A program made the translations under genes and the position numbers. Under the pieces are notes generated by a model, which saw nothing but the letters and a program-made list of their open reading frames with translations, was not told where the DNA came from and searched no databases. Positions 43,621 through 64,000 of a DNA stretch of 64,000 nucleotides are shown one piece after another. The stretch is from Fimicolochytrium jonesii (taxonomy: Eukaryota): contig NW_026515669.1 in assembly GCF_025526975.1 (NCBI RefSeq), forward strand, positions 1,550,001 through 1,614,000, in the 5' to 3' direction. Numbering within the stretch: position 1 is the first letter of the stretch; each line of letters starts with the position of its first letter.

Positions 43621-45815
43621 ATGTTGACGCGTCGGAGCCCGCGGAAAGGTAACGTGTCATGGTGCATTTCGCGCATTGGAGATTAGCATGATGCTAACGA
43701 AAGGCTTCTTCCATCACCAGTGACCTTTACCATTCAAACAGCAGCAGTGCTGCTATTTGCGACCCATCCTGGTCTGGCAAGCCCATTGTTTCTCGACGTT
43801 CCGACACCCGCCAACGACTTGGCCCCGGCAATTCCAACCCTGCCCCCGCTCGCCACGCCCTCTGCACCAATAGGCACCGGCTCGACCCCTACTCCTCCGC
43901 AAGCTGCAAAGGTCTCTAGTGGAGTACCCAGCCCTCCGGCGACCGTGCAAGGCAGTAATGTTTCATCCGCGATTAGCACCGTAACCCCCGAAACAGACGC
44001 AGGAAGCGAATTAACTTGCCCCGATGGACACTATGCAAACGCTGAGAATACCAGCTGTCTGCGCTGTGATGCGTCCTCCACCAATGTCGTTACGTGTGAA
44101 AATACGCTGGCGCTGCATGCGAATGCTTTGAGGCCGTCGTCTTCGGAGATGGGAGCGTGGGCGCCAGCCGTAACGGCAGCCGTGGTTGGGATTCCTGTGT
44201 TGGTTTGCATCTGCATTGCGTTGGGGGCGGTTTGGTGCATATGGAGCAGACAAAAGAAGGCGAAAGGGGATCTCTTCGGTAGTAAAATGGACTCGCTTAA
44301 AGGTACGCCTAATCAGGATTGTCCTATATGATATCGATTTTCAAGCTGATTTTCGTCTATGGAACAGACTTCAGTGAAAACAGCAATCTCCCAACACGGC
44401 CTCAGCGGGCATGGAGGAAGCCTGGTGGCTCCGTGCGCGTGGGCGGGATAAAGGAACCACCTCTTGTGAAAGATGAAGCCAGCGGGCAACGAGAGAAGTT
44501 CATGGACATGGTCTCAAAGGCGTGGCAAGGGCCATTGGAGCCTGATCGAAAGACTGCAAAGCCCGCGCAACCATCAGCAGCACTCTCCGCGCCTCATTCG
44601 AATGGAAGCGAAGGAGGACTGACAGCAGATGAGCAGCGAAGCGCTCTCATTCCAACGATCACGCACATACCAGAGCTTGCGAGAGATCTGGAAGTACCGT
44701 TATTTGCTGGGAAGTCGTATCAGCCTGAACGATTTGCTGCACAGAACATCCCAACCATCCAAGTACATCAACCAGACAGTGCACCCCCTTCCGGCTTCAG
44801 CTCAGGGTCCTCCGCGACGTCGAACAGCTCGTATAATTCTCAAGGCAAACCCCGAAAGCCCATCTTAGCCCACCGCGAGAGACAAAAGCCTCGCAACCCC
44901 GGCGGCCGAATCTACGATGATGTCGACACCGGTCGGTCTGTGAACCGGGAGCTTATTCGCAAAGCCGCCCTTGACGAATTTGCCTATCAGCAACATAAAA
45001 ACAGCAGTGTGAAGTCGTCCACACCATCGGCAAGCGTGGATGGCTCTAACCCCAGCGATAACACACGGGTCAACACTCCTGCAACCGACCTGATGACAGC
45101 CAACGACGACGTTCCGCTGATCAACTTCGTCGGTCCAAGACCAGCTGCACCAACCGTCCGTCAGGACCCTCGCGTTCTTCGCCTCCATATCGAAAGCGGC
45201 ACATCATCCTCCCTCAGCTCTTCGGGGTCCTCCTTCAGATCGGAAGCATCATCAGCCTCGCGCCTTCCCTCGCCCAACGGGTCCACGAGCTCACGGGAAG
45301 CGATGCGTGCTCGACGCGATATGTGGGAGAACGCGTTGTTTACGCCAGGTTCCATGTTATCGCCGGTTCCGCCTTACGCGGCCACAGGCGTTCCGATGCT
45401 GATGCCTCACCCGCCTCCTCCGATCTTAAGCTCTCCGGATCCGTACCACCCGATGATGGGAATGCTCAGCATACCACCGCCATACCAGATCTATTTCGAC
45501 CAGCCTCAGTATGGCTTCGCGTCCAACTCTTCCACCACATCCTCATCCGCGGCCAGTTCCGCCTCGTCGTCGACGGATGACAGTCGCAGGGGTCGTCGAC
45601 CAGGTCGGACCCGCGATAGAAGTCAAGAGACGTCCCACGACCACCCTGACACCGCAGCTTCGCGTTCTGAATCGCGCGCACGGAGCACCTCTCGATCTCG
45701 GTCCCGCTCACGGCGTCGAGATAGATCCCAGCAGCCGAGCGATCGCGTCATGGATATCCGGATGCAGAAGCAACGCGTGCTCAATGAGGAGTATCGGAAG
45801 CTGCAAAACAAATGA
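43621..45815 (+). CDS. Hypothetical single-pass membrane protein with long low-complexity cytoplasmic tail, 3 exons
   Basis: Signal-like start, Pro/Thr stalk, CPDGHY..CLRC motif, TM AAVVGIPVLVCICIALGAVWCIW; the tail is the 44319-45815 ORF. Confidence 0.62.
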
Positions 45816-46258
45816 TGTGGACTGCCACACTTACTCGCACGGTTGGATGTTCTGTTCGGATTGTTGTTCTTATGCATGGTGTGTTCATATGTCTGTTCTT
45901 ACGGGTCAGTGGCTACTATAGCCTGACCCCACCCCTGTGAATACAGTAGAAACTCATCCCTTGTGTTGTTGTCAATCGGTTGTATGTACATATATATATG
46001 CAAATGTCAATAGTCCATCCGAAACTTCCATTGATAGTACGTAAGAGGACGGCAAAAGTAAAACGCAGATGACAAAGCACCCAATAAATGTGCGACGGCT
46101 CGGAGGCGCTGAATCACGTGCGTTGCTCGAATATAGATGACATCATAAAGTCTGTAGATCCACAACTCTCACTTGGCAGCTCAACGCGTCGGGAACTTCG
46201 AGGGAAGACGCCTGTCACGCGCCCCATCCACACGTCACCGTCACCGCGAATCAGGGAT

Positions 46259-46279
46259 GGGGGGGGGGGGGGGGGGGGG
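46259..46279 (+). repeat. Poly-G tract (about 21 nt)
   Basis: Uninterrupted G run in intergenic DNA. Confidence 0.9.
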
Positions 46280-46999
46280 AACGCAGAGTCCTTCCCTCTC
46301 CCTTCTTGCTTACCCGCTGATGAGGGAGGGATATTCCTGGATTGATGAGAACTGCATGCAATCATCCATGCAGCATCATAACTGGCTCATGAAGGTGGGG
46401 AAAAGGACACCGCTCCCTGCGTATCGATATTTCCGTGCAAAAAGGATAAAATCGTACGTAGGATTCTTGATCCACCCGCTACGCAAAGATAGGAAAGCCT
46501 CACTTGCAAGATCCGCACGGTATCCGTCCAATAATACTTGCCAGGTGTTTCCTCACTCGCAATACATACATCCACTCGGCGCAAGCAGCAAGCAGCACCA
46601 GCAGCAAACGGCTGTCTCGTCTTTCCGAGCGTTATCACCATTTGGTGTTCCTTTTCCACTCGTTGAACGAAACTTTATCCCACATACGCATACTCGGTTC
46701 GGTGTCGCAACCTGACCTATCTGTGCATACCGCCTTCCCTCCCCAAAGTCTTCGATTCAAGTTGCAACCACGTCCACACATTCTCGTCGGGTACGATTCT
46801 CGTCTCTTTCCGATCGGTCCTGACAACTTTCTACGGTTCGAAACCTTTCTGGTGAGTGAAGAGCTCTTCAGGCGGACTTGCCACTTGCAAGGTCTTCTCC
46901 AGAGTGTTTGCCTGCACGAGTTGCACTTGCGAGTGATATCCCGGTTTAGCTCACTCTTCATCACTACCTCATAGCGTCGCCTAAACAACCAGTATCGCA

Positions 47000-49662
47000 A
47001 TGACCGAAGCGTTAGACATCTCCGCACCGTTCAATGTGCGTGGGCACAAGAACCATGCTGCCATTTCCGTCCCTTTAAACGTCGCGACGAGCCCGACAAA
47101 ATCTAACGATGTTCACTTGCAGGCGGTTTCGTCGCCTCGCAGGAAGTTGTCAGTAATGGACGTCGCGACGTCGCCTTTGGCGGTGAACTTCCACACCTGG
47201 CGTATAAACGCGCTCACCACCAACGCATTTCGTCAATGCCAGTTCCTTGAGCACGCAAAAAAGACGTTTGACGAAGCCGGTGCGGATTCCGACAAGAAAG
47301 CCATGCGCATGCTCAAGGATCTTAGCTTTTTCAACTCGTCGCGGCCTTCGAGCGGATCCTCGCGTCTTTCCGAGCAGGCCCCCAAGTCGACCTACAGTGC
47401 GCTTCGAGCTCTCTTGACTACTCCCGTCTCTGCCCTTGGCGACGCAGAATGGCTTTTGGCCATCAAAACGCTTCTCGAGCCGCAGCCGGAGCTGTACGAG
47501 GAGTTCAAGGAAGCATTTGGCATACGAGAAGACGATCACACCCCGCATGATGTGGATGAGGCGTTCACTCCGACATCTGCCGCAGCCGCTGCTGAGACGG
47601 GCAAACCCTTCGTCCGTCGTTCCAGCAGCAAAGTGAAATTCGAAACACGAGAGGTACAGAATGCGGGCTCGGATGAAGATATGCCAACCATCCTTCACTA
47701 TCCTCCCACCCCAGCTGCGGTCGACCTGCGTGAGTCTCCTTTCCTTTCCATCTCCGAATGCAGATCCCCAACCCCGATGAGCCCCGCTGGACCCGCCGAC
47801 AAGTCTTTCGCATTTGATGCCACCGCTCCGGCCGCCATCCCTGAGCAGGAACAGAACGAGGTGTGCTTGAACGGACACTACATCGCCTACGACTTGCATG
47901 TGGCCATGATGGACAGGCCCGGCGAAATGCGGGAACTGATGGCAAGGAACCCCGAACTCTTCGAGAACATTCGTAATAGCTGTTGTGCGGATGACGATCG
48001 GTGGATCGAGCTGGAAGACGTGCTGTTGACATCTCGAGAAGAGATGGATGACTTGACTTGGATGCACACGATCGGAGACCACATGGGCAACAACCCAAGC
48101 TTGTTTGCAATGCTCAAAGAACTAGTTGGCTATGACATGCACGAGGAAGTTGCGGAAGAAAGTGAAGACGAGGATAGCGATCTATATGATGAGGAAGACG
48201 ATACCTTCGAGAAGCCTGAATGGCTTGACACGGTCGTCAAGATGCGGGAAGCCCCGGAGATCATGCAGCGGCTTGAGAATGATTGTAAGCGTCAATGCTC
48301 TGTGTTGTTGACCGCCTTTATCCTGTATATGAGAACTCACACCCATCTCTCTCAGATCCGCAATTCTTTGCCAATGTCAAGAAAGCCATTGCAGCGGAGG
48401 ATGAGACGGAATACTCCCACTTCCTCAGTGCGTTTTACAGTCCTGCTTCGACCATGTCTGACCAGGAGTGGGAACGCGAGATGCTGCGGTATCTCGCACG
48501 ATCCAAGTCGCTTCTCAGCCAGCTTCGCGAGATTGCCCTCTACGAACTTGACGTGGATGAAGATAAACCGGAGCCGGAGACCAGTATCTTTGAGCCTGCC
48601 GTCAAGGTCGACTTCTCATCGCGTCCAGCACCTACCCAGGCTCAAGGACCAGCGTCCAAGATCGAAGTGAAGGCCCGTGCCGACCCTTCGGCTACGAGGG
48701 ACTTGGAAACGGACCACCCACTCTTCTTTAACCTGCTGAGGAAGCAACTCACATCTCGTGACGAATACCATCGCTTCCTCCGAGCACTCTACGCTCCCCG
48801 AGAACACATCGCCGACGACAAGTGGGAAGCGTTGATTACACATCGCTTCCTCTCGGGCTCGCGGCGCCTGCGTCAGATGTTCCGTGAAGTCGTCGACGCT
48901 ATGGTCATTTCCACGTCCGAGATTATGGATTCGGACGATGAGGAATACCTTGGCCGATTCGAAGCGCCGATTCGAGGCGTCAGTGATGCCCGTGCGCGCA
49001 TCCTGCGACTCGAGCTTGCCGCTCCTGAACTATTCAACAAGATAAAGCGCAAGCTTGGCGACCAGTACGGCCGCTTCAAAGCTCTGCTCGTCACACCACG
49101 GGAGGAAATGAACGACGACGAGTGGGCCGAACGCATCGAGACGTACCTGGAGAGTGATATCCAGTTGTCGACCGGGTTTGCTCAGGTCGCCGGCATCCAG
49201 CAGTTGCGGAAAGACACTGCCAGCAAAAGCACCGCTGCGGCAGAAGAAGGCACCGGCGAGATCCTCTCCACGAGTCCATCATTGCAATCCGCAGCGCCTG
49301 TCATCGCACCTGTCCGCCCACCATCCCCCACCTCCTCCACACATTCCGGCCAATACGCCATCCGCGAGCAAATCGCCTCCAGCATCGGCCAGCTCGACTG
49401 GTTCCTCGGGCTGAAATCCGCCGTCGATGACGATAAGGTGTTTGGAAAGCTCCTCCATGGCCTCATTGAGAAAGAGGAGACGGAGAAGATCGCGCATCGC
49501 GACGACGCCACCCCGAGGTCTGAGGACCTCTCTGGCGGTATTCTGGAGCATGCCAACGTCTCCAACGACAAGCACGTGCTTCGGGAGTTGTTGCACGAGG
49601 TATTGCCATCCAATTCTGAGGTTGCTAAGCGTGTCGAAAGCTGGCTGGAAACATTGCCTTGA
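47000..49662 (+). CDS. Hypothetical protein with five ~60-70 aa helical repeats (PAH/harmonin-homology-like), 2 exons
   Basis: Two long ORFs joined by intron 48286-48355. Repeated pattern PxFF..I/VK......Y..F...L..PREE..D.EW...I...L....L...F. Confidence 0.72.
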
Positions 49663-50245
49663 GCTGGAGGGAATCCCCGTATTTGCCTATCTGTTCACAA
49701 TGCCTGGGCCGCGGGCGTATCATTGTCATTCCCTTCCGATTCGCTGGCTTTGTATCTTCTTTCATTTTCGCTTGTAATAATCTGCAATTTTGAGCCTTTT
49801 CATATCGGTGACCTTTTGTTCTCAACTTCACCAAATCTTTTTCCATTGTCCTCTCGGAGCCAAAGATGAGCATCTGGTCAAGACAGAATGTATTCCCATT
49901 TTACGTATTACAGTGCCCCGGAGAGCACGTTCAGATGCAAGCCAGCGCCCGACAGGTGAGCGTAACACAGAGGAATGGATGAGGCCTCTGTACATATTAC
50001 CATACATCTCCAAAGGCATCCGTTTCTGTAACGACTGCTACAAATTGTACATTGCTCACATAACATACATACGAAACCCAAATACGCCGGTCTACTTATG
50101 CTGCGCCAATTTCTAGCACTTCAGAGGTGACCGATTCCACACGAGCCTGATCCAGCTTCTCAGGCTGCAGTACTAAGAGAAGATGTGATAGCGTTGCCTG
50201 ATATCGCTGAACAGGATGTCTCGATCCGGAGAATCGGCAAGGACG

Positions 50246-51685
50246 TCAATGTTGAGTGATCCCGCGTGGGCTCTTTTCAGCGGCTGAGGCTGCGGTCCTG
50301 AGAGAAGACGTGAAAGGGCTGTCGGAGATCGCCGAACAAGAAGCCTCGCTTCGGATGCTGCCCAACGACGCATGGCTATCAAGCCCACGCGATGATAAGG
50401 CGTAGTTCCCAGTCTGCGGCTCAGTGCTTTTCGGGGGTGCACATTCCTGAACGTAGTCCCCAGCTGGCGGTTCCGAACGTCGTCCCGCGCTCACGTCGAC
50501 AAAGGAAGCTTCCAAGTTTGTCGTTAAGTTGATATGTTCCGCTGCAAACTGAGCAGCTTCGATTGTCTTGAATTCCGCATATGCTATGCTGGTGCCATCT
50601 TCGAAGCGGCTATACGTTATCTCCTTCGCATTCTCGTACGAGCCAAGCCATTCCGTGGATCGTTTCTTTCCAAAATTGGTATTGAACAACATCGTCTCCT
50701 TAAGATCGACCTGTATGGCGGCAGAGGGGTTGGCATCCGCCATTTTGAAAGGGGCTCGTTCGGGTGGCGACACCATCTCGGCTGTGGCTGGGGTATAACC
50801 CTGCACAGAGGAAACGATTTGAGGAAAGGGACTGATGTAAGCGGTGAAAGCGGGCCTTCGTCGGTCCCATACCTCGATATAACGAAAAAAGCGCCTGGCC
50901 GAGGGCGGATCGGAAAACGTAGCGATGCATTCTATTTCGGACAAGAGATCCACCCGCTGCCAGCCCCAGAATGATGATAAGAGATGCATGAGAACTATTT
51001 GGGAATCAAAATCGTTACGACTTCTGTCTTGACCATTTGAGTGGTTTCCATCACAACATATACCAGCCGGTTCATCGCCATAGGGGGTGACACGAACGCC
51101 GCGTGCTTTACTGTAGAGATCCGGATTCGTCACTTTGCCGTTTTGCTCCGCCAGATAGTCCCCAAAGTCGTCCAATTTCGAGATCGGTTCCGTGGGATTC
51201 CCGTACCGATCGACAAAGTAAGGCAGCAAATTTGTTTTCGAAGTGAGGTAATCGATGAAGCTAAAAGCGTCGTGAGTTGACTTAAATTTGACAACGTTCC
51301 CACGAGGAAAAGCTCTCCCTTGATCATATCCTGGTTGTCGCTGCGCTATCTTCTTTACGACCGAAACTGGCAGAAAGTTTCGAGGTATATAGACATATGG
51401 CGACTCGACGGCAACCGAAGCGATGGGAAACGGGCCGTTCTTCGGGTTCGCAAACGACCACTTATCCCAATGCAGCTTGACACGAGCATTAAGTTTCAGG
51501 TTGAGTGTCCCCAGAGCACGAACGGCGTTGGCGTGCGAGGTGAAGCATATGAGATGGAAGTGTGGGAACCAGAATATTTGTGTGAAGTCCTCGAACTCTT
51601 CGCAGGCTATGAGCAAATCGGCCTCATCCACACCTCTAGGCAGAGGCGGGCGGACCACTAGTCTGGATAGCTGTCCGACATCCAT
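50246..51685 (-). CDS. Hypothetical protein with several degenerate RRM-like modules; 5' end unresolved
   Basis: 479-aa ORF with repeated RNP1-like plus helix motifs (LICFTSHANAVRAL, VVKFKSTHDAFSF, IATFSDPPSARRF, AYAEFKTIEAAQFA). Confidence 0.6.
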   Translation of the reverse strand: MDVGQLSRLVVRPPLPRGVDEADLLIACEEFEDFTQIFWFPHFHLICFTSHANAVRALGTLNLKLNARVKLHWDKWSFANPKNGPFPIASVAVESPYVYIPRNFLPVSVVKKIAQRQPGYDQGRAFPRGNVVKFKSTHDAFSFIDYLTSKTNLLPYFVDRYGNPTEPISKLDDFGDYLAEQNGKVTNPDLYSKARGVRVTPYGDEPAGICCDGNHSNGQDRSRNDFDSQIVLMHLLSSFWGWQRVDLLSEIECIATFSDPPSARRFFRYIEVWDRRRPAFTAYISPFPQIVSSVQGYTPATAEMVSPPERAPFKMADANPSAAIQVDLKETMLFNTNFGKKRSTEWLGSYENAKEITYSRFEDGTSIAYAEFKTIEAAQFAAEHINLTTNLEASFVDVSAGRRSEPPAGDYVQECAPPKSTEPQTGNYALSSRGLDSHASLGSIRSEASCSAISDSPFTSSLRTAASAAEKSPRGITQH

Positions 51686-52079
51686 AGCGACGTTGCTGAA
51701 AAGGAGAGAGGTGACTAGTCCAAGTTCACAGCAGCGTTAAGACCACCCAAAGATGGACTTGCTCTTGCTTTGACGCGAGGAGAGCCGATTCGCGAACCGG
51801 AAGATTCTATTGACCGCAAGGACTTCGAGATACCTGTCAAATGCTGGGAAGTAGGAGCCACACCGTTGAGATTTGCAAACTCAACGACCCGCTTTGCCGT
51901 AATCCTTTGCGATGCACAGTCCAGATGGGGAAAGCAACAGGGTCTTGCTGTGCTGTCGAGCCTGACTTGACGCGTCTCTTACCACAAGTTGCCATCATCG
52001 GCGACGCCTCAGGCAGAGGTACAATGATGTGGATGGCAGATAACCACCACGGAAAATGGGATGGGGTGAGGATTCTAGA

Positions 52080-53197
52080 CTACCTACGGTTACGGGAGAA
52101 TACGTCTGGTCTGCGGCCATTGCCAAACACCACCGAACGCACAATCGAGAGGAAATTCTTGGTGCTCAGGACGTCCCGATTGTGCACTCTCATCCGTAGT
52201 CGTAGTGGTCGTCTTCCAGGAATCTCAAATGGCGTCCAGTCTTGGTTGATACATTCGGGGTTGGGGCAACCCACCAATCCATGGACGTATTCCATTCTTC
52301 CCTTTCTAGCTTGCCACAGCCGAGATGACAGCCGGCGTCGGATGTTTTTCTTCACACGCCCGTGGCAGTCTGGGCACACAGCGGCGACAGCGGGATAGTG
52401 GGGACAGCGGCGACAGCGGCGACAGCGGGATAGCGGGATAGCGGGGACAGCGGGATAGCGGGGACAGCAGGGCAGTAGTAATCAGCTGAAACTTACCGAA
52501 ATGGCCGCTCCTTCTTGATGTCTCGACAGAACAAGAGGTCACGCTTGCCCGGATCAATGCTGACAATGTTTGGAGCCTCCCGTAGTTTGGCGATGTGGTG
52601 CTCAAAATACAGCTGCTTGACTTCTTCCTGCATTTGGGCTTTGCTGCGCTTCTGGGCGCGATGGCCGTACTTGAGCCCTGGCTTCTTGAAGTGGATGGTA
52701 GCGGAATACCCGTTTGTGCTGATTGACACATCAAATTTGAGACCAAGCTTCTTTCGATCCTTGAAGACCTTGTCCTGCAATCCGTCATTCAGCAAGGTGA
52801 GGTGAGTGAAATAAGTGCAGAGGGATAGAGACTTACATTCACGTTGAGAAACTGCCCCCACAGCTCCCGCTTGCGTTGATCGGTGAGTTTCCCCATGCGA
52901 TGGCAGCCCAAGGCCAGGATATGAGTGGTTGGGATCTTCGTGTCGAGCCGAACAGATGACTGGATTCGAGATTTGCGCAGCGGGATAGCGGAAAACAGCC
53001 GCATTCCATGGTGCTCATAGAGGCGTGAGAGCTCACAATAGGCACCTGTGATGAGGCGAGGCAGGTGCGGACCATGATTAGACAAAAGAGGAACCCGCGG
53101 GGAGGGGGGGGCCAGAAATATACTAACTCACCTAAATATGGCATTGCGTCCACCGCAAGGCTGTATGCAAGCGGCTCATCCTGGGGAGGAAACAGAG
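52080..53197 (-). pseudogene. Fanzor1 (eukaryotic TnpB-like RNA-guided nuclease) remnant; intron-containing, internally deleted and interrupted by LTR insertion
   Basis: Spliced translation gives FSAIPLRKS..VRLDTKI, FDVSISTNG, RuvC-I VSIDPG (D at 52553-52555), zinc finger CPDC...VHGLVGCPNPEC and RuvC-III HNRDVLSTKN..GRRPDVFSR. In-frame introns at 53046-53131 and 52775-52836; a third donor at 52496. The RuvC-II region is absent. Confidence 0.85.
52378..52475. repeat. Imperfect 8-9 bp tandem repeat (CGG[C/G]GACAG / CGGGATAG) at the Fanzor deletion junction
   Basis: About 11 units read directly from the sequence. Confidence 0.88.
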
Positions 53198-53728
53198 TGT
53201 TATGGACGACGCGTCCATACCATGCGCTTACCTCATGACAGCATCCCAACAGTCAGTCAATGTCAATTCCCTGTCAAAACCTGACATCTGCCAAACCTCG
53301 CAGCCGCACGCAGCCGCGCTACCCCACACCTGCCACTGCCTTCATTTCTCCACTCAGCCGCACGTAGCCCCACCTCCCAACACTCGGCGCTTACAAACCC
53401 TTCTTCATACTTCCCCACGTACCCGCCCACAGCCTCAGCGTAGCCACCCCATCCCCAGTCTTCTGTTTCTATGCTTCCCCCACCCTTGGCGCTTCTCTTG
53501 GCTTCCCTCTCATTCCGCACCCTTCTGCTTCCCCACGCTTCCCCAGCCTTCCCAGAAAAGCATAAATAGCCGCCTCCCCTGAGCTCCCCACTTCCTGATC
53601 CCCCAGCAGATCAACACCAGTTCTTCCTAGTCTTGTTCTAGTTCTTGTTTCGGTCTGAATACCATTACCTGTCAACAACCTGCACCACAAGTCGCCTCTA
53701 TTTCCGTCGGCTCCGCCCATTCTTAACA
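53198..53728 (+). repeat. 5' LTR of element 1 (about 531 bp)
   Basis: TGTTA...TAACA termini and a TATA-like CATAAATA at 53561. The right boundary is inferred from the inverted terminus and adjacent PBS. Confidence 0.78.
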
Positions 53729-53779
53729 GTTTGATCTGCTCAACAACCCCCAGCCACTGTGCCTCCACGCCAAATCACC

Positions 53780-54706
53780 ATGTCCGACGCCCTTCCCCTC
53801 ACGGCCGAAGCCTGGCAAGCCATGTGCAATGCGATTGACGAACTTCGAGCGCAGAATACCACCCTACAAGCCGAACTAGCGCAAACCCAGACCACTGCCC
53901 CTGCCACTCACGCCCCCGAACCCAAAATCAGTCTCCCAGACAAATTTGATGGCACCCGAAGCAAGTTCCGTGGGTTCCTCAACCAGATCCGGCTTATGTT
54001 CGCCCTCCAACCCAGGCGCTACCCCAACGATCAGACCAAGATACGAACTATTGGCACCTACCTCACTGGCACCGCCCAGGCCTGGCTGGCGCCCCTTGTC
54101 GAACAAGACCATCATTCCCTTACGAACCTGGATGATTTCATCCAGCAAATGCAAGCAGTCTTTGGAGACAGCGACAGGATCCGCACGTCCGAAAACAAGC
54201 TCCAGAACCTTCGACAAACCCGTGCAGCAACAGAGTATGTAGCTGAATTCCGACAGCTGCAATGCGATGTGTCGTGGAATGACCAGGCATTGATTGCCAC
54301 CTTCCGTCGCGGCCTCAAAGAAGACGTCAAGGACTTAATGCTCACGATGCCCCCTACTGCCTCAATCGACACCGTGATGGAACAGGCCATCCAATGTGAC
54401 AACCGATTGTTTGAGCGCCATCTAGAGCGAAGCAGGAACCGACAGCCATATGTGCCAGTTACCACTAGCCCCACCCTCATGAGCCCCGACAACCGCCCAG
54501 ACGACCCTATGGTCATTGACGCCGCTCGTCCGCGAGGACCCCTCACACCGCTAGAGCGCCAACACCGCATCACAAACAAACTTTGCCTCTATTGTGGTAA
54601 ACCTGGCCACATAGCCAAACTCTGCCCAAACAAGATACGCACGGCGAATGTCGCGGTTAAGGAACCTGCACCCATCCAGGATTTTGCCCAAGTCCAGCTG
54701 CAGTAA
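53780..54706 (+). CDS. gag: Gag of element 1
   Basis: PDKFDG, LRQT..ATEYVAEF, FRRGL and zinc knuckle CLYCGKPGHIAKLC. Confidence 0.93.
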   Translation: MSDALPLTAEAWQAMCNAIDELRAQNTTLQAELAQTQTTAPATHAPEPKISLPDKFDGTRSKFRGFLNQIRLMFALQPRRYPNDQTKIRTIGTYLTGTAQAWLAPLVEQDHHSLTNLDDFIQQMQAVFGDSDRIRTSENKLQNLRQTRAATEYVAEFRQLQCDVSWNDQALIATFRRGLKEDVKDLMLTMPPTASIDTVMEQAIQCDNRLFERHLERSRNRQPYVPVTTSPTLMSPDNRPDDPMVIDAARPRGPLTPLERQHRITNKLCLYCGKPGHIAKLCPNKIRTANVAVKEPAPIQDFAQVQLQ

Positions 54707-57700
54707 AGGCCGAGCAGCTGGGCAACACCTGTCCTGGGCCTTCTCACCACGCAAGTACTGCCAAGGGAGAAGCCACAAAACCTTGCACCGATCCTGGCAT
54801 CTCCAGCAACACCCTTCTCCTGACCACCAACAATGTCAATCTCCGATCTGAGATACCCTCACCCATGCGGATCTTGGGCCCATCCTCACCATTCGAGTAC
54901 CCTGTTACCCTGCAGATATTGGCCCAGCGAGCTCCAGTTCAGCTTTCAGCACTACTTGACACCGGTGCGATGTCGTGCTTCATCGACGAAAGTTATGCCC
55001 GCAAGCACCGCATCCCACTTGTCAAGAAGGAGGACCCCATTGCGCTTGAACTGGTTGACGGACGTCCCAGCCATGCGGGCTCCATTACCCATCACACCCA
55101 ACCTTTGGGCATGTGGGTCAACGACCATTTTGAGGAGGTGGTATTCCATGTGACATGTTCCCCGCATGCGCCAATCATCCTGGGGCTTCCCTGGTTTGAG
55201 CTCCATGATGTGGAGCTACACTGGAAGACTCGCACTCTTTGCGTCCGCTGCCATTGCGGTTTTGGACAATACGCCTCCTGGGATGCCCTGCCAACAGAAC
55301 CTAGCCCGAAGCCCTCAAGAACCCCTGAACCTCTGATCCGTATCCATCAAGACGAGATTTCAGTCTCCCTAGCCCAGACACCCAACACACTGGACCCAGT
55401 ATCCACACCGATCCACGTATCGTTTATCAGCGCCCCAGCCTTCCGTGTGGCGGCAAGGCATGACCAGGCATTCATTGCCTACGCCAATCCGACCAAGTCA
55501 GATTCCCAAGCCCTGGCGACCACTCCTCCAAAAGATCCGAAGGCCATCATTCCTGAAGAATACCAAGATTTTGCGGACGTCTTCACCAAGAAGAACGCGG
55601 ATACCCTCCCAGAGCACTGACCCTACGACTGTCCCATCGACTTAGAAGAGGGCAAACAGCCACCGTTCGGCCCGATCTATAGTCTCAGCGAGCCTGAAAT
55701 GCAGGCACTCTGTGACTACCTTGAAGAGAACCTGGCTAAGGGGTTCATCAAGCACTCCAAGTCTCCCGCCGGTGCCCCAGTCCTCTTTGTCAAGAAAAAG
55801 GACGGTTCCCTCCGTCTGTGCGTCGACTATCGTGGACTCAACAATATCACCATCAAGAATCGCTATCCCTTGCCCTTGATTAACAGCATCATGGATCGTC
55901 TTCGAGGGGCACGCCGGCTCACCAAGATTGACCTCCGGGGAGCCTACAACCTTCTTCGGATCCGGCCAGGGGATGAATGGAAGACAGCGTTCCGATGTCG
56001 CTACGGCCTATTCGAGTATAATGTCATGCCGTTTGGGCTCACCAATGCCCCTGGAGTATTCCAACACCTCATGAACTGACATATTCCGTGACATTCTCGA
56101 CGTTTTTGTTGTGGTCTACCTTGACGACATTCTGATCTTCTCAAAAAACCCAGAAGACCACCCCAATCACGTCCGAGAGGTGCTCTCACGACTCCGCCAG
56201 CACGGGCTGTATGCGAAACCGGAAAAATGCGAATTCAACCGTGACTCTGTTGAGTTCCTGGGGTTTATCATCTCCCAGCAAGGCATTTCCATGGACCCAA
56301 AGAAGACGGCTGCCATTACCGAATGGGAACCCCCGACGAATGTCAAAGGCATCCAGCGCTTCCTTGGTTTTGCCAACTTCTACCGGCGATTCATCAAAGG
56401 GTACTCTGCGATCGTTGCACCCCTGACCACGCTCACTCGCAAAGACTTGCCATTCAAATGGACCCACGCTGCACACCTAGCTTTTGAAACCCTCAAGAAA
56501 GCCTTCACCTCCGCACCTATCCTGACTCACCCCGACCCTGACAAGCCCTTCATTGTCGAATCCGATGCCTCCGACTTTGCCCTTGGCGCCGTCCTCCTTC
56601 AACCCGACTGACACAGATCAACTCCACCCCGTGGCCTTTCACTCCCGCAAATTTACTCCTGAGGAAATCAACTATGAGATCTACGACAAGCAACTCCTGG
56701 CTATCCAAGACTCATTTGCTCAATGGCGACACCACCTCATTGGTGCCCGCCACAAGGTCATCGTTTACTGTGACCACAAGAACCTCCAGTACTTCATGAC
56801 TACCCGTACCCTCAACCGCCGCCAATCCCGCTGGTCAATCTTCTTTGCTGATTTCGACTTTGTCATCACATACCGCCCTGGTACCCAGCAACACCAAGCT
56901 GACGCCCTCTCTCGTCGCTCTGAATACGAGCTAAGGGAGGGGGAAGAAGCATTCCGCTCCCAGGAAACCACGATCCTCACCCCTGACCACCTCCGCCTGG
57001 CCGCCACTTATCTGACCCCACTGGACTCCTCGCTCCTTGACCAAATCAAAGCTGTCCTGGCATCCGATGTGTTTGCGCAAACCATCCGGCGACAGCTTAG
57101 GGCCCCCATTGCCCAGCAATCTCAAGAAGACCAAGAACGGATAAAGCGATTCTCCGAGGAAAATGGGGTTCTGCTGTACGACAACCTTGTCTACGTCCCC
57201 ACCAACAAGCTCCGTGCTGGGATCTGCCGGGACATGCATGACACGCGTTTGGCAGGACACTACGGCATGTCAAAGACCCTGGAGCTCATCTCACGCAACT
57301 ACTGGTGGCCTAGCCAGTGGCGTTTTGTCAAGTCCTACATCAGGTCCTGCGATGTATGTGCTCAAGCCAAGACCAGCAGACACAAGCCCTACGGACTCCT
57401 CCAACCCCTGCAGGTCCCTGACCGCCCCTGGGGGTCAATTTCCATGGACTTCATCACGGATCTACCCGCCAGTGATGGGGTTGATTCTGTGCTCGTTGTC
57501 ATCTGCCGGTTCACCAAGATGGCGCACTTTGTACCGTGCAGGAAAACCGCCACCGCTGAGTCAACTGCAGATCTGATCTGGCACCATGTCATCCGGCTCC
57601 ATGGACTCCCCGACGATATTGTATCTGACCGTGGCCCACAGTTCAACTCCCACTTCTGGAAACGTCTCTTGGCTCTCCTGGGAACCAAGGTCAACCTCTC

Positions 57701-58530
57701 ATCGGCGTTCCATCCCCAGAGCGATGGACAAACCGAGCGGACCAATCAGATTCTTGAGCAATACCTTCGCTGCTTTTGCAACTATCAACAAGATAACTGG
57801 AAGGAACTCTTGTCTTCTGCTGAGTTCTCTTACAATAACACCATCCACTCCGCCACCCAGACAACCCCCTTCTACGCCAACTATGGGTTCCATCCTCGAT
57901 TCAGTCTGGCTTCCGCCACCACAACCGAAGCCCTTAATCCTGCAGCCGAAGCTCGTGCCAACCATCTCAAGGAAATCCATGAACAGCTTGCCACTGAGCT
58001 CAAGGAGGCCCAAGGACGCATGAAGCGCTTTGCCGATGCTAAGAGGGCACCTGGCCCAGACATGAAACCCGGGGACAGTGTCTGGCTCTTACAGCGGAAT
58101 CTCAAGACTCTCCGACCTTCCCAGAAACTTGATCACCGTAAGATTGGCCCCTTCACAATCACGGAGAAGATCAACTCGGTCACATATCCCCTCAAGCTTC
58201 CCCCATCCTACAAAATTCACAACGTCTTCCATGTCTCCCTTCTTGAACCACGTTTCACCATTCCGGAGCGAACTGAGCCAGAACCCACCCCACCAGAAGA
58301 AGTCGAAGGACAGGAGGAATGGATTGTGGAAGACATTCTTGACTCCCGTATTCGACGCACGCACCTTCAGTACCTCATCAAGTGGCAGGGATGGCCAAGC
58401 TCGGAGAACACATGGGAGCCAGTGGAACACCTTGCCCGCTGTCAAGAGCTTGCAGTTCCACCAAAAGTACCCCGACAAACCCCGACCAAAGCCTGCCAAC
58501 ATCAAGACAACATCCGGACGCCGTGGCTAA
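54679..58530 (+). pseudogene. pol: Pol of element 1 (PR-RT-RNase H-IN-chromodomain), disrupted
   Basis: [38 protein letters not shown] integrase, SDRG, DGQTER and chromodomain YLIKWQGW..SENTWEP. In-frame TGA at 55618 and frameshifts near 56077, 56610 and 58450. Confidence 0.93.
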
Positions 58531-58557
58531 AGGAGGGGGTGATGTTATGGACGACGC
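58529..58557 (+). other. Polypurine tract and 15-bp stub of element 1 3' LTR
   Basis: AAAGGAGGGGG-TGA followed by TGTTATGGACGACGC, identical to the 5' LTR start. Confidence 0.88.
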
Positions 58558-58768
58558 TGTGGTGCGGTGAGGAAACAGGTCATATTGCCGCAACCCTAAC
58601 TCCCTGCGGTAACCCTACCCCACTAGCTAGTTTATATCCCCAGTCACATGACTTGTTGTCGTATTTTTCTACTTGTACATATCCGCGCGCGACTGCGCCG
58701 GCTTTCTCTTTTCTTCTTTACCCATAATACATCTATATATCCCTGCCTACCTCATTCTGGTGGAGAAT
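58558..58768 (+). repeat. Putative 5' LTR (58558-58754) and PBS (58758-58768) of element 2
   Basis: TGTGGTG...TACCTCA imperfect inverted termini, then TTC and TGGTGGAGAAT, which resembles the complement of a tRNA-Ala 3' end. The partner LTR is outside the window; an alternative end at 58809 cannot be excluded. Confidence 0.6.
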
Positions 58769-59181: not shown

Positions 59182-60947
59182 ATGGCGTTCCCTGGCACTC
59201 CCGCCTTCTTCGGAAGCAACGATTGGCGTGACACTCGTCCTCTTTTTAGCGACACCCAAGAAGACAATGAACTCAGCGAGCACGACAGCAGCGACGGCCA
59301 CTCCGCTTGCGCCTGCGCTACGGAGTCCGCGCGCGCGCGCATCGACGCCTTCCTTGCCCGCTCACAAATCGAGCATGCGGGTGTAAAGATCGGATTGTAT
59401 GGCGCCATTTCGCATGTCGATGCAGAAGTCCTTGTCGGCTTGCTTCAATTCTGTACCGATATGGGCATTAGCTTCGATTCAGTATGTGAAGGCTTAGCGG
59501 ACGGTACCCTTGATCGAGTCTACGTCCAATCCCTCAAGTTCGCACTCGACGCTCATCCCGCGCAATTCGCCCTCCGTGAATTTGCGAACGTCGTCAAAAC
59601 TGCCACTGTTTGGCATCTCTCGCGTGATCGCTACCATGCCGGCCCGCATGCGGCGACTCGTCCTCAGTCGGCGCCCTCGAACAACCCTACTTCTCGTCCT
59701 CCGCATCGCGCTGGTGCTATACCTTCGGCACCTGTAGCCGCTGCCCCTCTAGATGGCGCCGTTAGTCAACAGGATCTCGTCACGTTGATGTTCCGCACCC
59801 TCGAACAACTTCAGCGCACCCCGCAGACAACCAATTCACAAGCGTCACTCAACAAAGGCCTGCCCAAATACGAAGGCAATAAATATCATCAGGACTCGTC
59901 ACGAATCTTGCAATGGCTCCGCACCTTCGACAAGCTCGCTGACTCTTGCGGCGTTCAAGAAAAGGACCGCTTCCGTTGGCTGTCTAAGGCGATTGATGAC
60001 AAAGACCAGCTCACTTGGACATGGTTTACGTCGTATCAAGGCAACACCCAAGATTGGAACCACGTTCGTACCGATATGGTTTTAGAATGCGCCTCGTCGG
60101 TCGACCGCGACCCGTCGCTCCTCGCCGACCGCATCTCAACCTTCCAGCGCGCTCCGGGGCAAACCATTCGTCAGTACGGCAGCCTATTCTTGTCATTAGT
60201 TTACGAACTCGAATACCTCAATAAACACATTGCAACGGTCGCTACGGAACTCACCCGGACCCAATTGCTCGAGCTTTTATCCGCGGTCTAGGCGATAGTG
60301 CTACGCTGGCGCACGCGCTTGGTTTGCCGAACTTCAACCAGCTTCCAATCGAGGAGTTGATTCGGGCTTGCGCCGATTACGCCGAACGCAAGGACGCATA
60401 CTCAGCGCCAAACGTGCCGTATCAGGCGTCGACTCGTCCATCGTACCCCGCACCGACGGCTACGAACATCCCGGGCACCAACAACCAGTATCCCTCAAAT
60501 GCGCGGAACCAGCGTCCTTCGGTACCTCGCGCACAGCCCGCTCCACGGGTCTTGCAACCAGCGCCGCAAGCTTCGGCCCCGACGACTTCGGCGGCTCCGG
60601 CAGCGTCTGGTCCGGATGACTTGACTGCCCGCATGCGCGACCTTTCCATCAAGACCGCCGGTAATAGCAACCAGTATCCTCCGGGCCTTCCCAGCGCGCG
60701 CCCTCAACGCCGCGACCGCGCCTGCTTTCGTTGCGGACAATCCGGCCACATCTTCAGGGATTGTCAATCCACCACGAAACTGGATACCTGGCGTGGGTAC
60801 CAGTTAGCGGCCGCCTTCTACCCCGAAGAAGTCCATGAGTACGACGAAGATCATACCGAATATTACTCGATGGTCCTCCGCGATGTGGGCCACTACTACG
60901 CGGACCCGGAAGACCAGGATTTTCCCAATGGGAGCTCGGAGCAGTAG
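59182..60947 (+). pseudogene. gag: Gag of element 2, with one frameshift
   Basis: LPKYEG..WLRTFD and FQRAPGQTIRQY. Adding one T to the run at 60275-60278 restores LELFIRGL. Zinc knuckle CFRCGQSGHIFRDC. Confidence 0.82.
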
Positions 60948-63900
60948 GGGACTCCGACCTCCCGCAATACGATCCTCCGGATCCCCGCCCAATGTCGTTG
61001 GCGATTTTTATGGCTGAGAAGAGAAAAGCGGATGAGCTCCCGTCCGAACCGGCTTCGAAATGACTGAACACTTCGACGCACCCGATGCCCTTCCCGGCAC
61101 GGCCCCCGCTCAAGACTCGTCCCTCGGTGACGCCCGCCCGCCCGCCGGGTGTCCTTCCTTCACGTTACACTGTCGGTCAACAACAGAGTACGCCGATGCC
61201 GGCGCGGTTTCCCCCGGTACCTCCCCCGCCGACCAGATTACCTCCTACACCCATTGTCGAGTTACCTCGCGTTACTCCACCGCCTAAATCGGTACGCTTC
61301 AACACTCCCACCAGTACACCGATGGAGATCGATCCCCGGGGGACATCCGGTCCAACCCGACCTGCCGCACCGCACAAGCCGCCGTCACCGATTGTTCCCA
61401 CCCGCAAGTCCCCCTCACCGCCGCCCCGCGCCGATTCCCTGGTCGGTGATGACGATCCGCGCATTCCTGCTCCCATCCGTGCGCTGATTGACAAGAAACA
61501 ATTCGATATCGTCAACTTCCTCAACGAGACTGAAGTGCGCGGACTTACTCTTGCCGACCTACTCCAATGGAGCCCGGCCTTACGCGAACGCCTCCGCGAC
61601 GCGATGAAACTCGTCCCCAAGGTGCGCCGCGCGGCTCTATGTTTTCGCGAACCTCTACTTGGTGCCTGGCACCCTGACGCTGAGCCTCCGGACCATGACA
61701 GCGACAACACCCTCAACGGACGTCTCGACTTTCACCTCAAAGCTCTCTCCAAGGTTGATGTTTCCGCAACCGGCACCCATTACATGAACGCGCTCATCCA
61801 GAATTCGCCCGCGAAGTGCCTCTTCGACGGTGGTTGCTGCTTGATCGCCATCAGCGCCGAGGTCCGCAAGCGCCACCAATGGACTCTCACCAAGGTTCCT
61901 TCTACCTTTCATTTGCGCCAAGTTGACGGTTCCGCTCCTAAGCTCGAGGGAGAGGTCCACAACCTCGTCGTCACCATCGAGGGTCATCAAGTTCCGATCA
62001 ACGTCCTTTCCATCGTCGGAATGGACGCCGAGTGCTTACTAGGTCGTCCATTTCTGGAGATGGTAATGGGCATCACCCATTGGAAGAATTCCATTTACCA
62101 TTTCAAGATTCACGGCTCCTGGATCCTCGTCCAAGGTAGCACTGGAGAGACGCGCGAAGTCCGTACCCTCACGGCGGCCGAGGAACGTGAATGGGATCAG
62201 CACGGTCGTACACCCCTTCTCGATATCACTCCTCCGGCGCCACGCACCCGTTCCCAAACCAGGCAAGCCAACATCTCCTCATTGATCGCTGACGGCTTCA
62301 AGGTGGAGATCGATCACACGGGCGATCAGACGCTCGCTGACATTCGTAGTGGCGCTCTCTTCGGCATACTACAAACTGAGCCCTGTCCACCCCTACCCGG
62401 CGACTACTATTCCCCGGATTCCGATCAGATGGATTTCCGCATCAACCTGCTACGCACCTTCGCGAATGCCCCGGTCCCCAACCAGATCACCGTCCCGGCT
62501 TTCCGACAACTTAAACAGGCTTTGCAACTCGAGCCCAAACTGCCCGAATTCACTCTCCCCGCGACACATGAGTTCCGCTTCCTCACGTGGAATGTTAATT
62601 CTTTGCGCAACCTCGTCCGCAAGGGGGTCGACCTGGGCTCCCTCTTCAACCGCCTGAACCTCGATATCGTTTGTTTCCAAGAAATCAAGTGTTCGCGTTC
62701 TTCATTACCGCTGTCGCTCACGGACATTCCGGGTTACCGCTCCTTTTGGTCGCTCAGTGAGACCAAACAAGGTGTCAAAGGCGTTGGGACGTACGTCCGC
62801 GCTGAGTTAGCCGCTACGCTACGCAAGGTCACAACCGACGCTGATCTACCGATCGACCCGGACGCCGATTGTGAGGGCCGTGTTCTCGCCCTCGACTTCG
62901 ACCAATGCACCGTGATCAACGTCTATTATCCGAACGGCGGGATGGGCGACGCTGATCAACAGGCTCATGCGATTACTTCCAAGATCGCCCTCCATCAGAC
63001 TCTGCTTCAGATCGCCACCGCGGCCCGGACGAGCGGACGACACGTCATATTCGCCGGCGATTTCAACGTTGCGCATACCGATTCGGATGTTCACCCCAAC
63101 CTGAAACACCAGATGCACACCGGTGTGACCCCAGCGGAGCGACAACTGCTCACGCATTTGACCGATCACAATTTCGTCGACACTTACACTACCTGCCACC
63201 CTGACGCGCCGGCCGGTGATGGCTACACCACATGGTGGTTCTCCAAGCACGCGCGCGAACGGAACATTGGGCTTCGACTCGATTATGTCTTCCTCGGTCT
63301 GCCGGATGCGGATTATACTCCTCGTATCACTTGCAATGTCCTGCACGAACTCCACGGCTCCGATCACGTTCCGCTGTTATTCACCCTACGCACCATAGTC
63401 AAAGAAACGATCCCCGAGTATCACGCCAAGATGTCGTCGTTAGTCAACGCTTCCCCGGAGTACGTTTCGCCCCTAGCCCCCCGCGACTCACCTACGCTCG
63501 TCCGCCAAGTCGCCGGCATCACTATCGAGTCGATCACTGCGCGATCCATACGCCCGACACCCATGCGCCCACTCAAGGTCGGCACCCGCACCTTCCAGGT
63601 TGCCGAAGATTTACCACCCGCGGTCGTTACCGAGTTAGAACAACTTCTTCACGAATACCACGACGAGTTCTGCAATAAAGACGAAGTGCCCCGCACCTTC
63701 AAGAACGTGCCTGAAATGAATCCGGTCTTGAAGCCCGACCATACCGGTCAACGCAAACTCCCTTTCCCGAAAACGCGCGCGCACAGCCCCAAGGATACCA
63801 AGGTGTTAAACGAATGGTGCGACCGGATGCTCCGGTGGGACAAGATCGAGCCGGTTACCGATCCCCCAGTGGTCGCTGCGCTGCCCATCGTCGTCTACAA

Positions 63901-64000
63901 GAATGGTGTAGCGCGGGTATGTGCGCACTTCAAGGTCAACAGCGAGATCCAAGCTTTCCGGTACCCCATCATTCCCGCTCACCTTACCTTGCAACGTGTC
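60917..64000 (+). pseudogene. pol: Pol of element 2: protease - exonuclease III/AP endonuclease - RT (partial)
   Basis: Manually translated frame (codon starts at position mod 3 = 2) has one TGA at 61061, then is open from 61064 to the end. Protease CLFDGG (61826)...LLGRPF, EEP domain 62573-63388, and RT start LLHEYHDEF...KIEP...PIVVYKNGVARVCAHF. Confidence 0.88.

Follow-up and report, generated by a model that had tools for sequence, protein, structure and literature searches.

An ExoIII/Xth-family nuclease lies between the protease and reverse transcriptase of a family of Ty3/Gypsy-order LTR retrotransposons

An EEP nuclease is treated as a mark of LINEs. In the 64,000-nucleotide stretch of Fimicolochytrium jonesii DNA analyzed here (the window), a sequence-only reading had placed such a domain within the pol frame of an LTR retrotransposon, between the aspartic protease (PR) and the reverse transcriptase (RT), and had likened it to cellular Xth/APE1 repair enzymes. 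This locus raises the questions of whether the nuclease is a regular component of an LTR element, where it came from and what it would do there.

The pol polyprotein frame occupies positions 60992 to 64000 of the forward strand and runs off the end of the window. A single frame from 61064 to 64000 carrying PR, nuclease and RT had been described; this layout held, but 61064 is not the start of the frame, which is already open at 60839, contains an ATG at 60992 and is interrupted by a premature TGA at 61061–61063. The stop-free portion that follows (61064–64000) encodes 979 amino acids and is still open at the window end. A sister protein, P0003, has Arg at the position of the TGA. Because of this premature stop, the window copy is unable to produce the polyprotein on its own. 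The protease (61787–62059, forward strand) has a D-G-G motif whose Asp codon is at 61826, and was matched by Pfam gag-asp_proteas at amino acids 242–332 with an E value of 3e-4 that is under the curated cut-off. This motif reads DGG in both F. jonesii copies (the window and P0003) and DSG in the full-length relatives described below. The RT start (63560–64000, forward strand) was aligned to residues 920–1067 of one of these relatives, P0156, and the window ends before the YxDD motif. Although no Pfam family scored on the last 147 amino acids of the frame and their match to the RT of a neighboring chromovirus was weak (E 0.008), they were 32% identical to the RT start of P0156 (E 8e-19). The RT of the relatives is of the LTR type, and the alignment supports the description of this segment as an RT start. 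The window frame is collinear with the full-length relatives over 934–1018 aligned residues at 25–27% identity.

Between the protease and the RT start, the forward strand from 62573 to 63388 translates to a 272-amino-acid domain in which we found each of the EEP motifs previously quoted from it. We identified it as an ExoIII/Xth-family (EEP) nuclease from Pfam, TIGR00633 and PDB matches and from an AlphaFold model. Pfam Exo_endo_phos matched along its entire length (E 2e-23). The xth equivalog TIGR00633 scored 178 bits (cut-off 99), whereas the LINE-type profile Exo_endo_phos_2 reached 26 bits, under its cut-off of 27.4. The best PDB sequence match was the Mth212 ExoIII (E 6e-39). All 57 PDB matches at E 0.001 were named as ExoIII, APE1, APE2 or Crc, and none of them was named as a LINE endonuclease. 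The AlphaFold model (pLDDT 78.6) matched ExoIII/APE1 structures at a TM score of ~0.76, and the fold matches listed for it were ExoIII/APE1 chains. These results support the sequence-only reading in assigning the domain to the cellular Xth/APE enzymes and not to the LINE endonucleases.

The sequence upstream of pol indicates how this copy came to lie where it does. A degenerate chromovirus, a Ty3/Gypsy element with a chromodomain, extends from 53198 to 58557 on the forward strand and was recognized by Pfam matches to gag, PR, RT-RNaseH, integrase and Chromo. Of its 3′ LTR, no more than the initial 15 nt are found in the window (58543–58557); they are identical to 53198–53212 and are preceded by a purine tract. 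A 197-nt TG...CA segment (58558–58754, forward strand) begins exactly at this LTR break, and on that basis we read it as the probable 5′ LTR of a separate second element, the nuclease-bearing one, inserted 15 nt into the chromovirus 3′ LTR. Five of the first six bases at the termini of this candidate LTR are complementary, and it contains TATATA at 58734. Its 3′ boundary was inferred because no second LTR lies inside the window, and a repeat search within the 64 kb returned no LTR pair of at least 40 nt. The CA end is 3 nt before a probable TGG-led primer-binding site (PBS) read directly from the sequence (58758–58768, forward strand), which, judged by tRNA identity elements, is probably tRNA-Ala-like. 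A gag-like ORF follows (59182–60947, forward strand). It is split between two frames by a frameshift break near 60225–60290, and contains a CCHC zinc knuckle at ~60717–60767 (zf-CCHC, 23.4 bits; cut-off 20.8); it gave no capsid match in Pfam, and its single-sequence model had a pLDDT of 42. At the gag-pol overlap we identified a candidate −1 ribosomal frameshift site, GGATTTT (60917–60923, forward strand), presumably a slippery heptamer of the −1 type, with pol in the −1 frame; a hairpin downstream of it had a z-score of −1.09, within chance. With both a gag frameshift and an early pol stop, the window copy is broken. Its YxDD motif, RNase H, integrase, polypurine tract, 3′ LTR and target-site duplication would fall past the window end.

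Because the window copy is broken and incomplete at the window end, relatives carry much of what can be said about the element. In a HMMER search against 1.84 billion representative sequences, the best 150 of 5392 matches were examined; eight of these were relatives with the nuclease and a profile search added two more, giving at least 10 relatives whose nuclease is 30–100% identical to that of the window copy. Two are from F. jonesii, one is from Gaertneriomyces and seven are from single metagenome or run contigs. In all, 11 proteins have the nuclease at the same in-frame position; they come from sources of four kinds and include two named genera. The xth profile scored over its cut-off in eight of nine relatives, the ninth being the truncated P0009. 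P0003, from F. jonesii, differs from the window copy at 9 of 761 residues, has no stop at the position of the TGA and ends earlier; its sequence identifies it as another copy, or an allele, of the window element. P0005 is an F. jonesii form that is 55% identical and of which the nuclease region alone is known. P0009 is a partial sequence from Gaertneriomyces semiglobifer, which belongs to a different family of Spizellomycetales, and P0006 and P0079 are partial members. Five members have an AT-leaning amino acid composition, unlike the chytrid members, which suggests that they come from other hosts.

Three relatives (P0007, P0155 and P0156; 2053–2186 amino acids) are full length. Each is a single ORF with the order PR-EEP-RT-RNaseH-integrase-SH3, and the catalytic motifs are intact in all three: DSG in the protease, D...YRDD in RT, D/E/D in RNase H, and HHCC and DDE in the integrase. 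YRDD was found in all four RT-bearing members. The best solved-structure match of the RT-to-integrase (IN) region was Ty3-G (E 6e-36), and a search with the P0006 RT led to generic LTR-type RT clusters. Comparison of P0156 with P0007 and P0155 gave 45–50% identity in the nuclease, close to the 50–51% of RT and higher than the 28–31% of the linker between PR and EEP. Flanking regions matched one another in 10 of the 11 members and matched none of 167 other EEP proteins.

Other searches placed limits on the family. RT of the family was only 23–27% identical to the five nuclease-less RTs that were found, and an RT-only search among proteins of up to 1201 amino acids did not recover a close nuclease-less sister; most members were found with nuclease-containing queries, so that nuclease-less sisters are under-sampled. 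Viral contigs had no match to the nuclease-bearing element. In metagenome contigs, the 80 loci examined out of 186 matched the nuclease only, with no PR, RT, RH or IN match at E 0.01 in any of them; these loci look cellular because the nuclease alone matched. The 14 phage records were ordinary Xth matches at 26–31%, and a protein-cluster atlas gave no usable match for amino acids 230–979 of the window frame. Retention of the nuclease in at least 10 relatives, three of them with the complete PR-EEP-RT-RNaseH-integrase order, together with their LTR-type RT-RH and DDE integrase, confirmed by sequence comparison that this layout is a family trait of Ty3/Gypsy-order LTR elements rather than a one-off chimera.

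We next considered the origin of the nuclease. By plain similarity its best solved matches are to archaeal Mth212, and a prokaryotic donor was therefore a candidate, but forcing the element-borne nucleases to group with prokaryotic rows was rejected (p-AU 0.022). Forcing them to group with APE1-like rows was not rejected (p-AU 0.17). The element-borne nucleases formed one clade both in a FastTree analysis of 178 rows (SH 87) and in an IQ-TREE site-mixture analysis of 55 rows chosen from the 178 (92/94), in which P0003 was omitted as a near-copy and the bootstrap was not fully settled. In the 55-row tree this clade joined eukaryotic APE2-like rows at 94/94, both the clade node and the joining node being below 95 in bootstrap. 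The group labels in these trees relied on length and tails, on zf-GRF and on the earlier tree; the cellular rows were picked by likeness to the query, and LINE endonucleases were not among the rows. The domain had been called typical of APE1/Xth enzymes. Membership in the Xth/APE family stood, whereas in the best tree it groups with APE2-like proteins and the APE1 pocket is lost, as described below. From these data the nuclease was likely captured once, long ago, from a host repair gene, and a eukaryotic APE2-like gene is the favored donor. No family member gave a zf-GRF match.

The active site was then compared with those of characterized enzymes. The catalytic residues N68, E96, Y171, D210, N212, D283, D308 and H309 (APE1 numbering) are kept in every member that covers them. 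Two pocket positions are changed: the column equivalent to APE1 F266 is T or A in all 10 members covering the site, two of which are near-copies, and at the column equivalent to W280 each of the 10 has L, M or F, with W in none. In the window nuclease the replacements are F266 to T and W280 to L. All 10 members retain W267. Of the 130 APE1-like and prokaryotic rows, 125 had an aromatic residue at 266 and 120 had W280; the 37 APE2-like rows were mixed at the pocket columns. The 10 members that cover the site thus lack the abasic-site pocket that marks the APE1 subfamily. The reported APE1 F266A mutant has a 20–50-fold higher exonuclease rate (PMC5785985), and APE2 proteins are described as having no abasic pocket and preferring exonuclease substrates (PMC5785985, PMC6122073). 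Because the pocket residues are lost and the catalytic set is kept, these published mutants favor a bias toward 3′-5′ exonuclease activity. An exclusively exonucleolytic enzyme is argued against by a report that ExoIII with the second aromatic residue alone, and hence an open pocket, retained both exonuclease activity and AP incision (PMC8887469). The residue by which Mth212 reads uracil is reported to be Arg209 (PMC6202378); the corresponding residue of the window nuclease is Ser, which speaks against a uridine endonuclease of the Mth212 type. We predict that the family nuclease is an exonuclease-biased enzyme that perhaps keeps some AP incision.

Our model, which we hold with moderate confidence, is that this APE2-like nuclease, captured once, works inside the particle to trim the 3′ ends of cDNA copied from the element itself. 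Gag-Pol of an intact element would carry the nuclease there together with RT. The protease may then release the nuclease, as the sequence-only reading proposed, or the domain may remain joined to RT. Acting as a 3′-5′ exonuclease/3′-phosphodiesterase, it would trim mismatched, untemplated or blocked cDNA 3′ ends. Stalled or mispaired primer ends would thereby be reset during reverse transcription, and the reset ends would let synthesis, strand transfer and integration reach completion. Among the roles suggested earlier, 3′-end trimming is thus the one that we favor, and processing of abasic or deaminated cDNA less so given the loss of the APE1 pocket. In a stronger form that we advance only tentatively, the family would be an undescribed old LTR lineage in which RT has its own APE2-derived 3′-5′ editing exonuclease, on or beside RT, and a lower error rate than that of retroviruses and other LTR elements. 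Several considerations weigh against trimming. An unchecked 3′-5′ exonuclease behaving like ExoIII could erode the ends of linear cDNA. The nuclease is also less conserved than RT in one pair, P0007 and P0155, with 49% identity against 73%. Finally, in P0015 and P0031 the nuclease is kept next to a Dam-like tail without RT-RH-IN, and a purely RT-coupled role does not account for this.

These two proteins count in favor of an action during or following integration, or on the chromatin of the host, in which the nuclease would process the gapped intermediate, prepare target DNA or oppose silencing together with the Dam-like domain. P0156 also has a Dam-like C-terminal end (29 bits; cut-off 28.1), and APE2 is reported to resect at nicks and short gaps (PMC6122073). 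Of the nine differences between the window copy and P0003, eight are possible as single transitions and six of these are at CpG, which hints at host methylation pressure. However, the integrase HHCC and DDE motifs are intact, and ordinary Ty3/Gypsy elements rely on host repair to close the gaps. In P0007 and P0155 the Dam-like tail has degenerated, and the nuclease adjoins RT rather than integrase. We regard this explanation as unlikely, although of the alternatives to cDNA trimming it survives best.

A somewhat less probable alternative is that the nuclease handles base damage, namely abasic sites or uracil in cDNA, as a functional stand-in for dUTPase. The domain had been said to occupy the slot in which some retroelements carry dUTPase, and it does share the PR-RT position reported for the dUTPases of rotifer, basidiomycete and planarian elements (PMC5408684, PMC6431247). 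The uridine endonuclease Mth212 is among the best structural matches, and the AP incision retained by ExoIII with only its second aromatic residue is consistent with such a role. Loss of both APE1 pocket residues in 10 of 10 members and of the Mth212 arginine in the window copy argues against it. In addition, no glycosylase accompanies the element, and incision at abasic positions would tend to destroy cDNA that is still partly single-stranded.

It is very unlikely that the nuclease replaces a core function, either RNase H or, by LINE-like nicking, target-primed insertion. ExoIII has an RNase H-like activity, the adjacency of EEP and RT copies the LINE order, and RNase H of the full-length relatives is weak in Pfam (20–23 bits, under the cut-off). 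Nevertheless, the RNase H D/E/D and integrase DDE residues are intact in all three, and a TG...CA LTR and a PBS lie upstream. Of the RNase H-like and integration-assisting roles proposed by the sequence-only reading, replacement of either enzyme is thus not what the relatives show. Least probable, and already largely refuted, is an accident of some kind: a neutral passenger, a piece of a nested LINE, an assembly error or a chimera that arose only once. In its favor, the window copy lies nested and is broken, each of seven relatives is a single metagenome or run contig, and Exo_endo_phos is reported sporadically in Kuafuortervirus LTR elements (PMC11673190). Against it, the 11 proteins share one in-frame position down to ~30% identity with catalytic residues intact, and the xth scores, the sub-threshold Exo_endo_phos_2 score and the absence of a LINE name among the 57 PDB matches all point the other way.

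If cDNA-end trimming is correct, it would provide an editing step for elements whose RTs normally have none; to our knowledge, LTR and retroviral RTs are taken to be without proofreading. A family with a fixed, cellular-type EEP domain of predicted exonuclease bias in a Gypsy-order pol would allow a direct test of whether editing or cleaning of cDNA ends is of benefit, and offers enzymology a natural pairing of RT and exonuclease. It also carries an annotation risk. Copies in two chytrid genomes are annotated as host 'Endonuclease/exonuclease/phosphatase' genes, and EEP plus RT would steer classifiers toward LINEs.

The layout had been thought to belong to no described family. In the openly accessible papers we found no catalogue entry for it and no account of an LTR pol with an xth-type domain fixed in it; one may exist in Repbase Reports, in GyDB, in journals behind subscription or in the bulk of the supplements. 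A conserved PR-EEP-RT layout in an LTR pol is thus apparently undescribed. In the accessible portions of four papers (PMC3248453, PMC10799480, PMC2774666, PMC5029228) the EEP domain is tied to LINEs or goes unmentioned. A related case is that of the Kuafuorterviruses, in which Exo_endo_phos is called sporadic: 15 of 21 mentions in the supplement are of the LINE-type Exo_endo_phos_2, frequently accompanied by a second RT, although three rows list protease, then Exo_endo_phos(_2), then RT (PMC11673190). Judging by these descriptions only, we read the Kuafuortervirus domains as nested LINEs. Those elements (Troyka) have animal hosts and IADD, VADD or LADD according to the same source, whereas the named hosts of the present family are chytrids and its RT has YRDD.

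APE-type endonucleases of LINEs and Helentrons likewise place an EEP fold upstream of RT on a mobile element. In the present family, however, a cellular xth-type domain has become fixed, and the element retains a DDE integrase. Assignment of the element to the LINE/non-LTR class was rejected on the sub-threshold Exo_endo_phos_2 score, the LTR-type RT-RH and this integrase. Among cellular enzymes, APE2/Apn2 is the sister group of the family in the best tree (94/94) and shares with it the lack of an aromatic residue at 266, an aromatic residue at 267 and the lack of W280. It differs from APE2/Apn2 in having no C-terminal zf-GRF and T or A rather than C at 266, and the element clade is not nested beside the named chytrid APE2 (P0134).

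Captures of other enzymes by retroelements provide a further comparison. Rotifer LTR elements are reported to carry a DEDDy exonuclease as ORF3 (PMC5408684), and AlkB in an orchid Gypsy element and DNMT and Dam in retrotransposons have also been described (PMC9289625, PMC5890265). As described in these sources, such elements likewise stably captured a nucleic acid-processing enzyme, but the enzymes have other folds, and DEDDy and AlkB are separate ORFs, whereas here the domain is inside pol beside RT. In the LTR elements reported to bear dUTPase (bdelloid Juno, Vesta and TelKA, basidiomycete Metaviridae and the planarian giants), the captured enzyme does occupy the same slot between PR and RT (PMC5408684, PMC6431247). 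dUTPase cleans the nucleotide pool, whereas the family nuclease is predicted to act on DNA ends. Finally, the gag-like ORF with its CCHC knuckle, pol in the −1 frame, PR-RT-RH-IN(-SH3) order and the probable TG-started LTR and PBS resemble those of Ty3/Gypsy (Ty3-G) elements, from which the family is set apart by the ~270-amino-acid ExoIII-family nuclease between PR and RT, by YRDD and, in some members, by a Dam-like end.

The protease motif of the nuclease-bearing LTR retrotransposon reads DGG in the window (61826-61834) and DSG in its relatives. At the position of the reverse transcriptase motif, whose usual form is CVDYRxLN, the window copy has CAHFKVN (63925-63945) and the relatives have CFNF/YxIN. 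This departure from the usual form is a family trait rather than decay.

Two further relatives are short (P0015, contig of 3721 nt; P0031, contig of 1636 nt). Each retains the nuclease in frame and then jumps directly to the C-terminal tail. Compared with the full-length relative P0155, P0015 is missing two segments: about 150 aa that hold the protease, and about 925 aa that hold the reverse transcriptase, RNase H and integrase. Such forms may have arisen by deletion, or they may represent subgenomic RNAs produced by splicing.

The chromovirus that received the insertion in its 3′ LTR (53198-58557) is degenerate, carrying frameshifts as well as a stop codon near 55620. Its CpG observed/expected ratio was 0.74, compared with 1.2-1.37 for the nuclease-bearing element and 1.03 for the first 50 kb of the window. 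This lower ratio hints that older insertions in F. jonesii are subject to CpG methylation. At 52390-52470, a CAGCGG-based unit is repeated imperfectly in a short tandem array. Ordinary host genes occupy 506-41000 (Pfam: esterase, SLX1, Ccdc124, DnaJ, NEDD4/Bsd2, TLC domain, trypsin, aquaporin and bHLH); a 1322-aa frame (5293-9261) and several 450-560-aa frames (44313-51736) had no Pfam match.

The pol of P0156, another full-length relative, ends in a Dam-like N6-adenine methyltransferase domain (residues 1939-2006; PF05869, 29 bits against a cut-off of 28.1), to which the TIGR01712 match was weak. The Dam-like match in P0031 (470-510) was also weak, and the domain is degenerate in the tails of P0155, P0015 and P0007, the third full-length relative. 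Dam domains are on record in DIRS elements.
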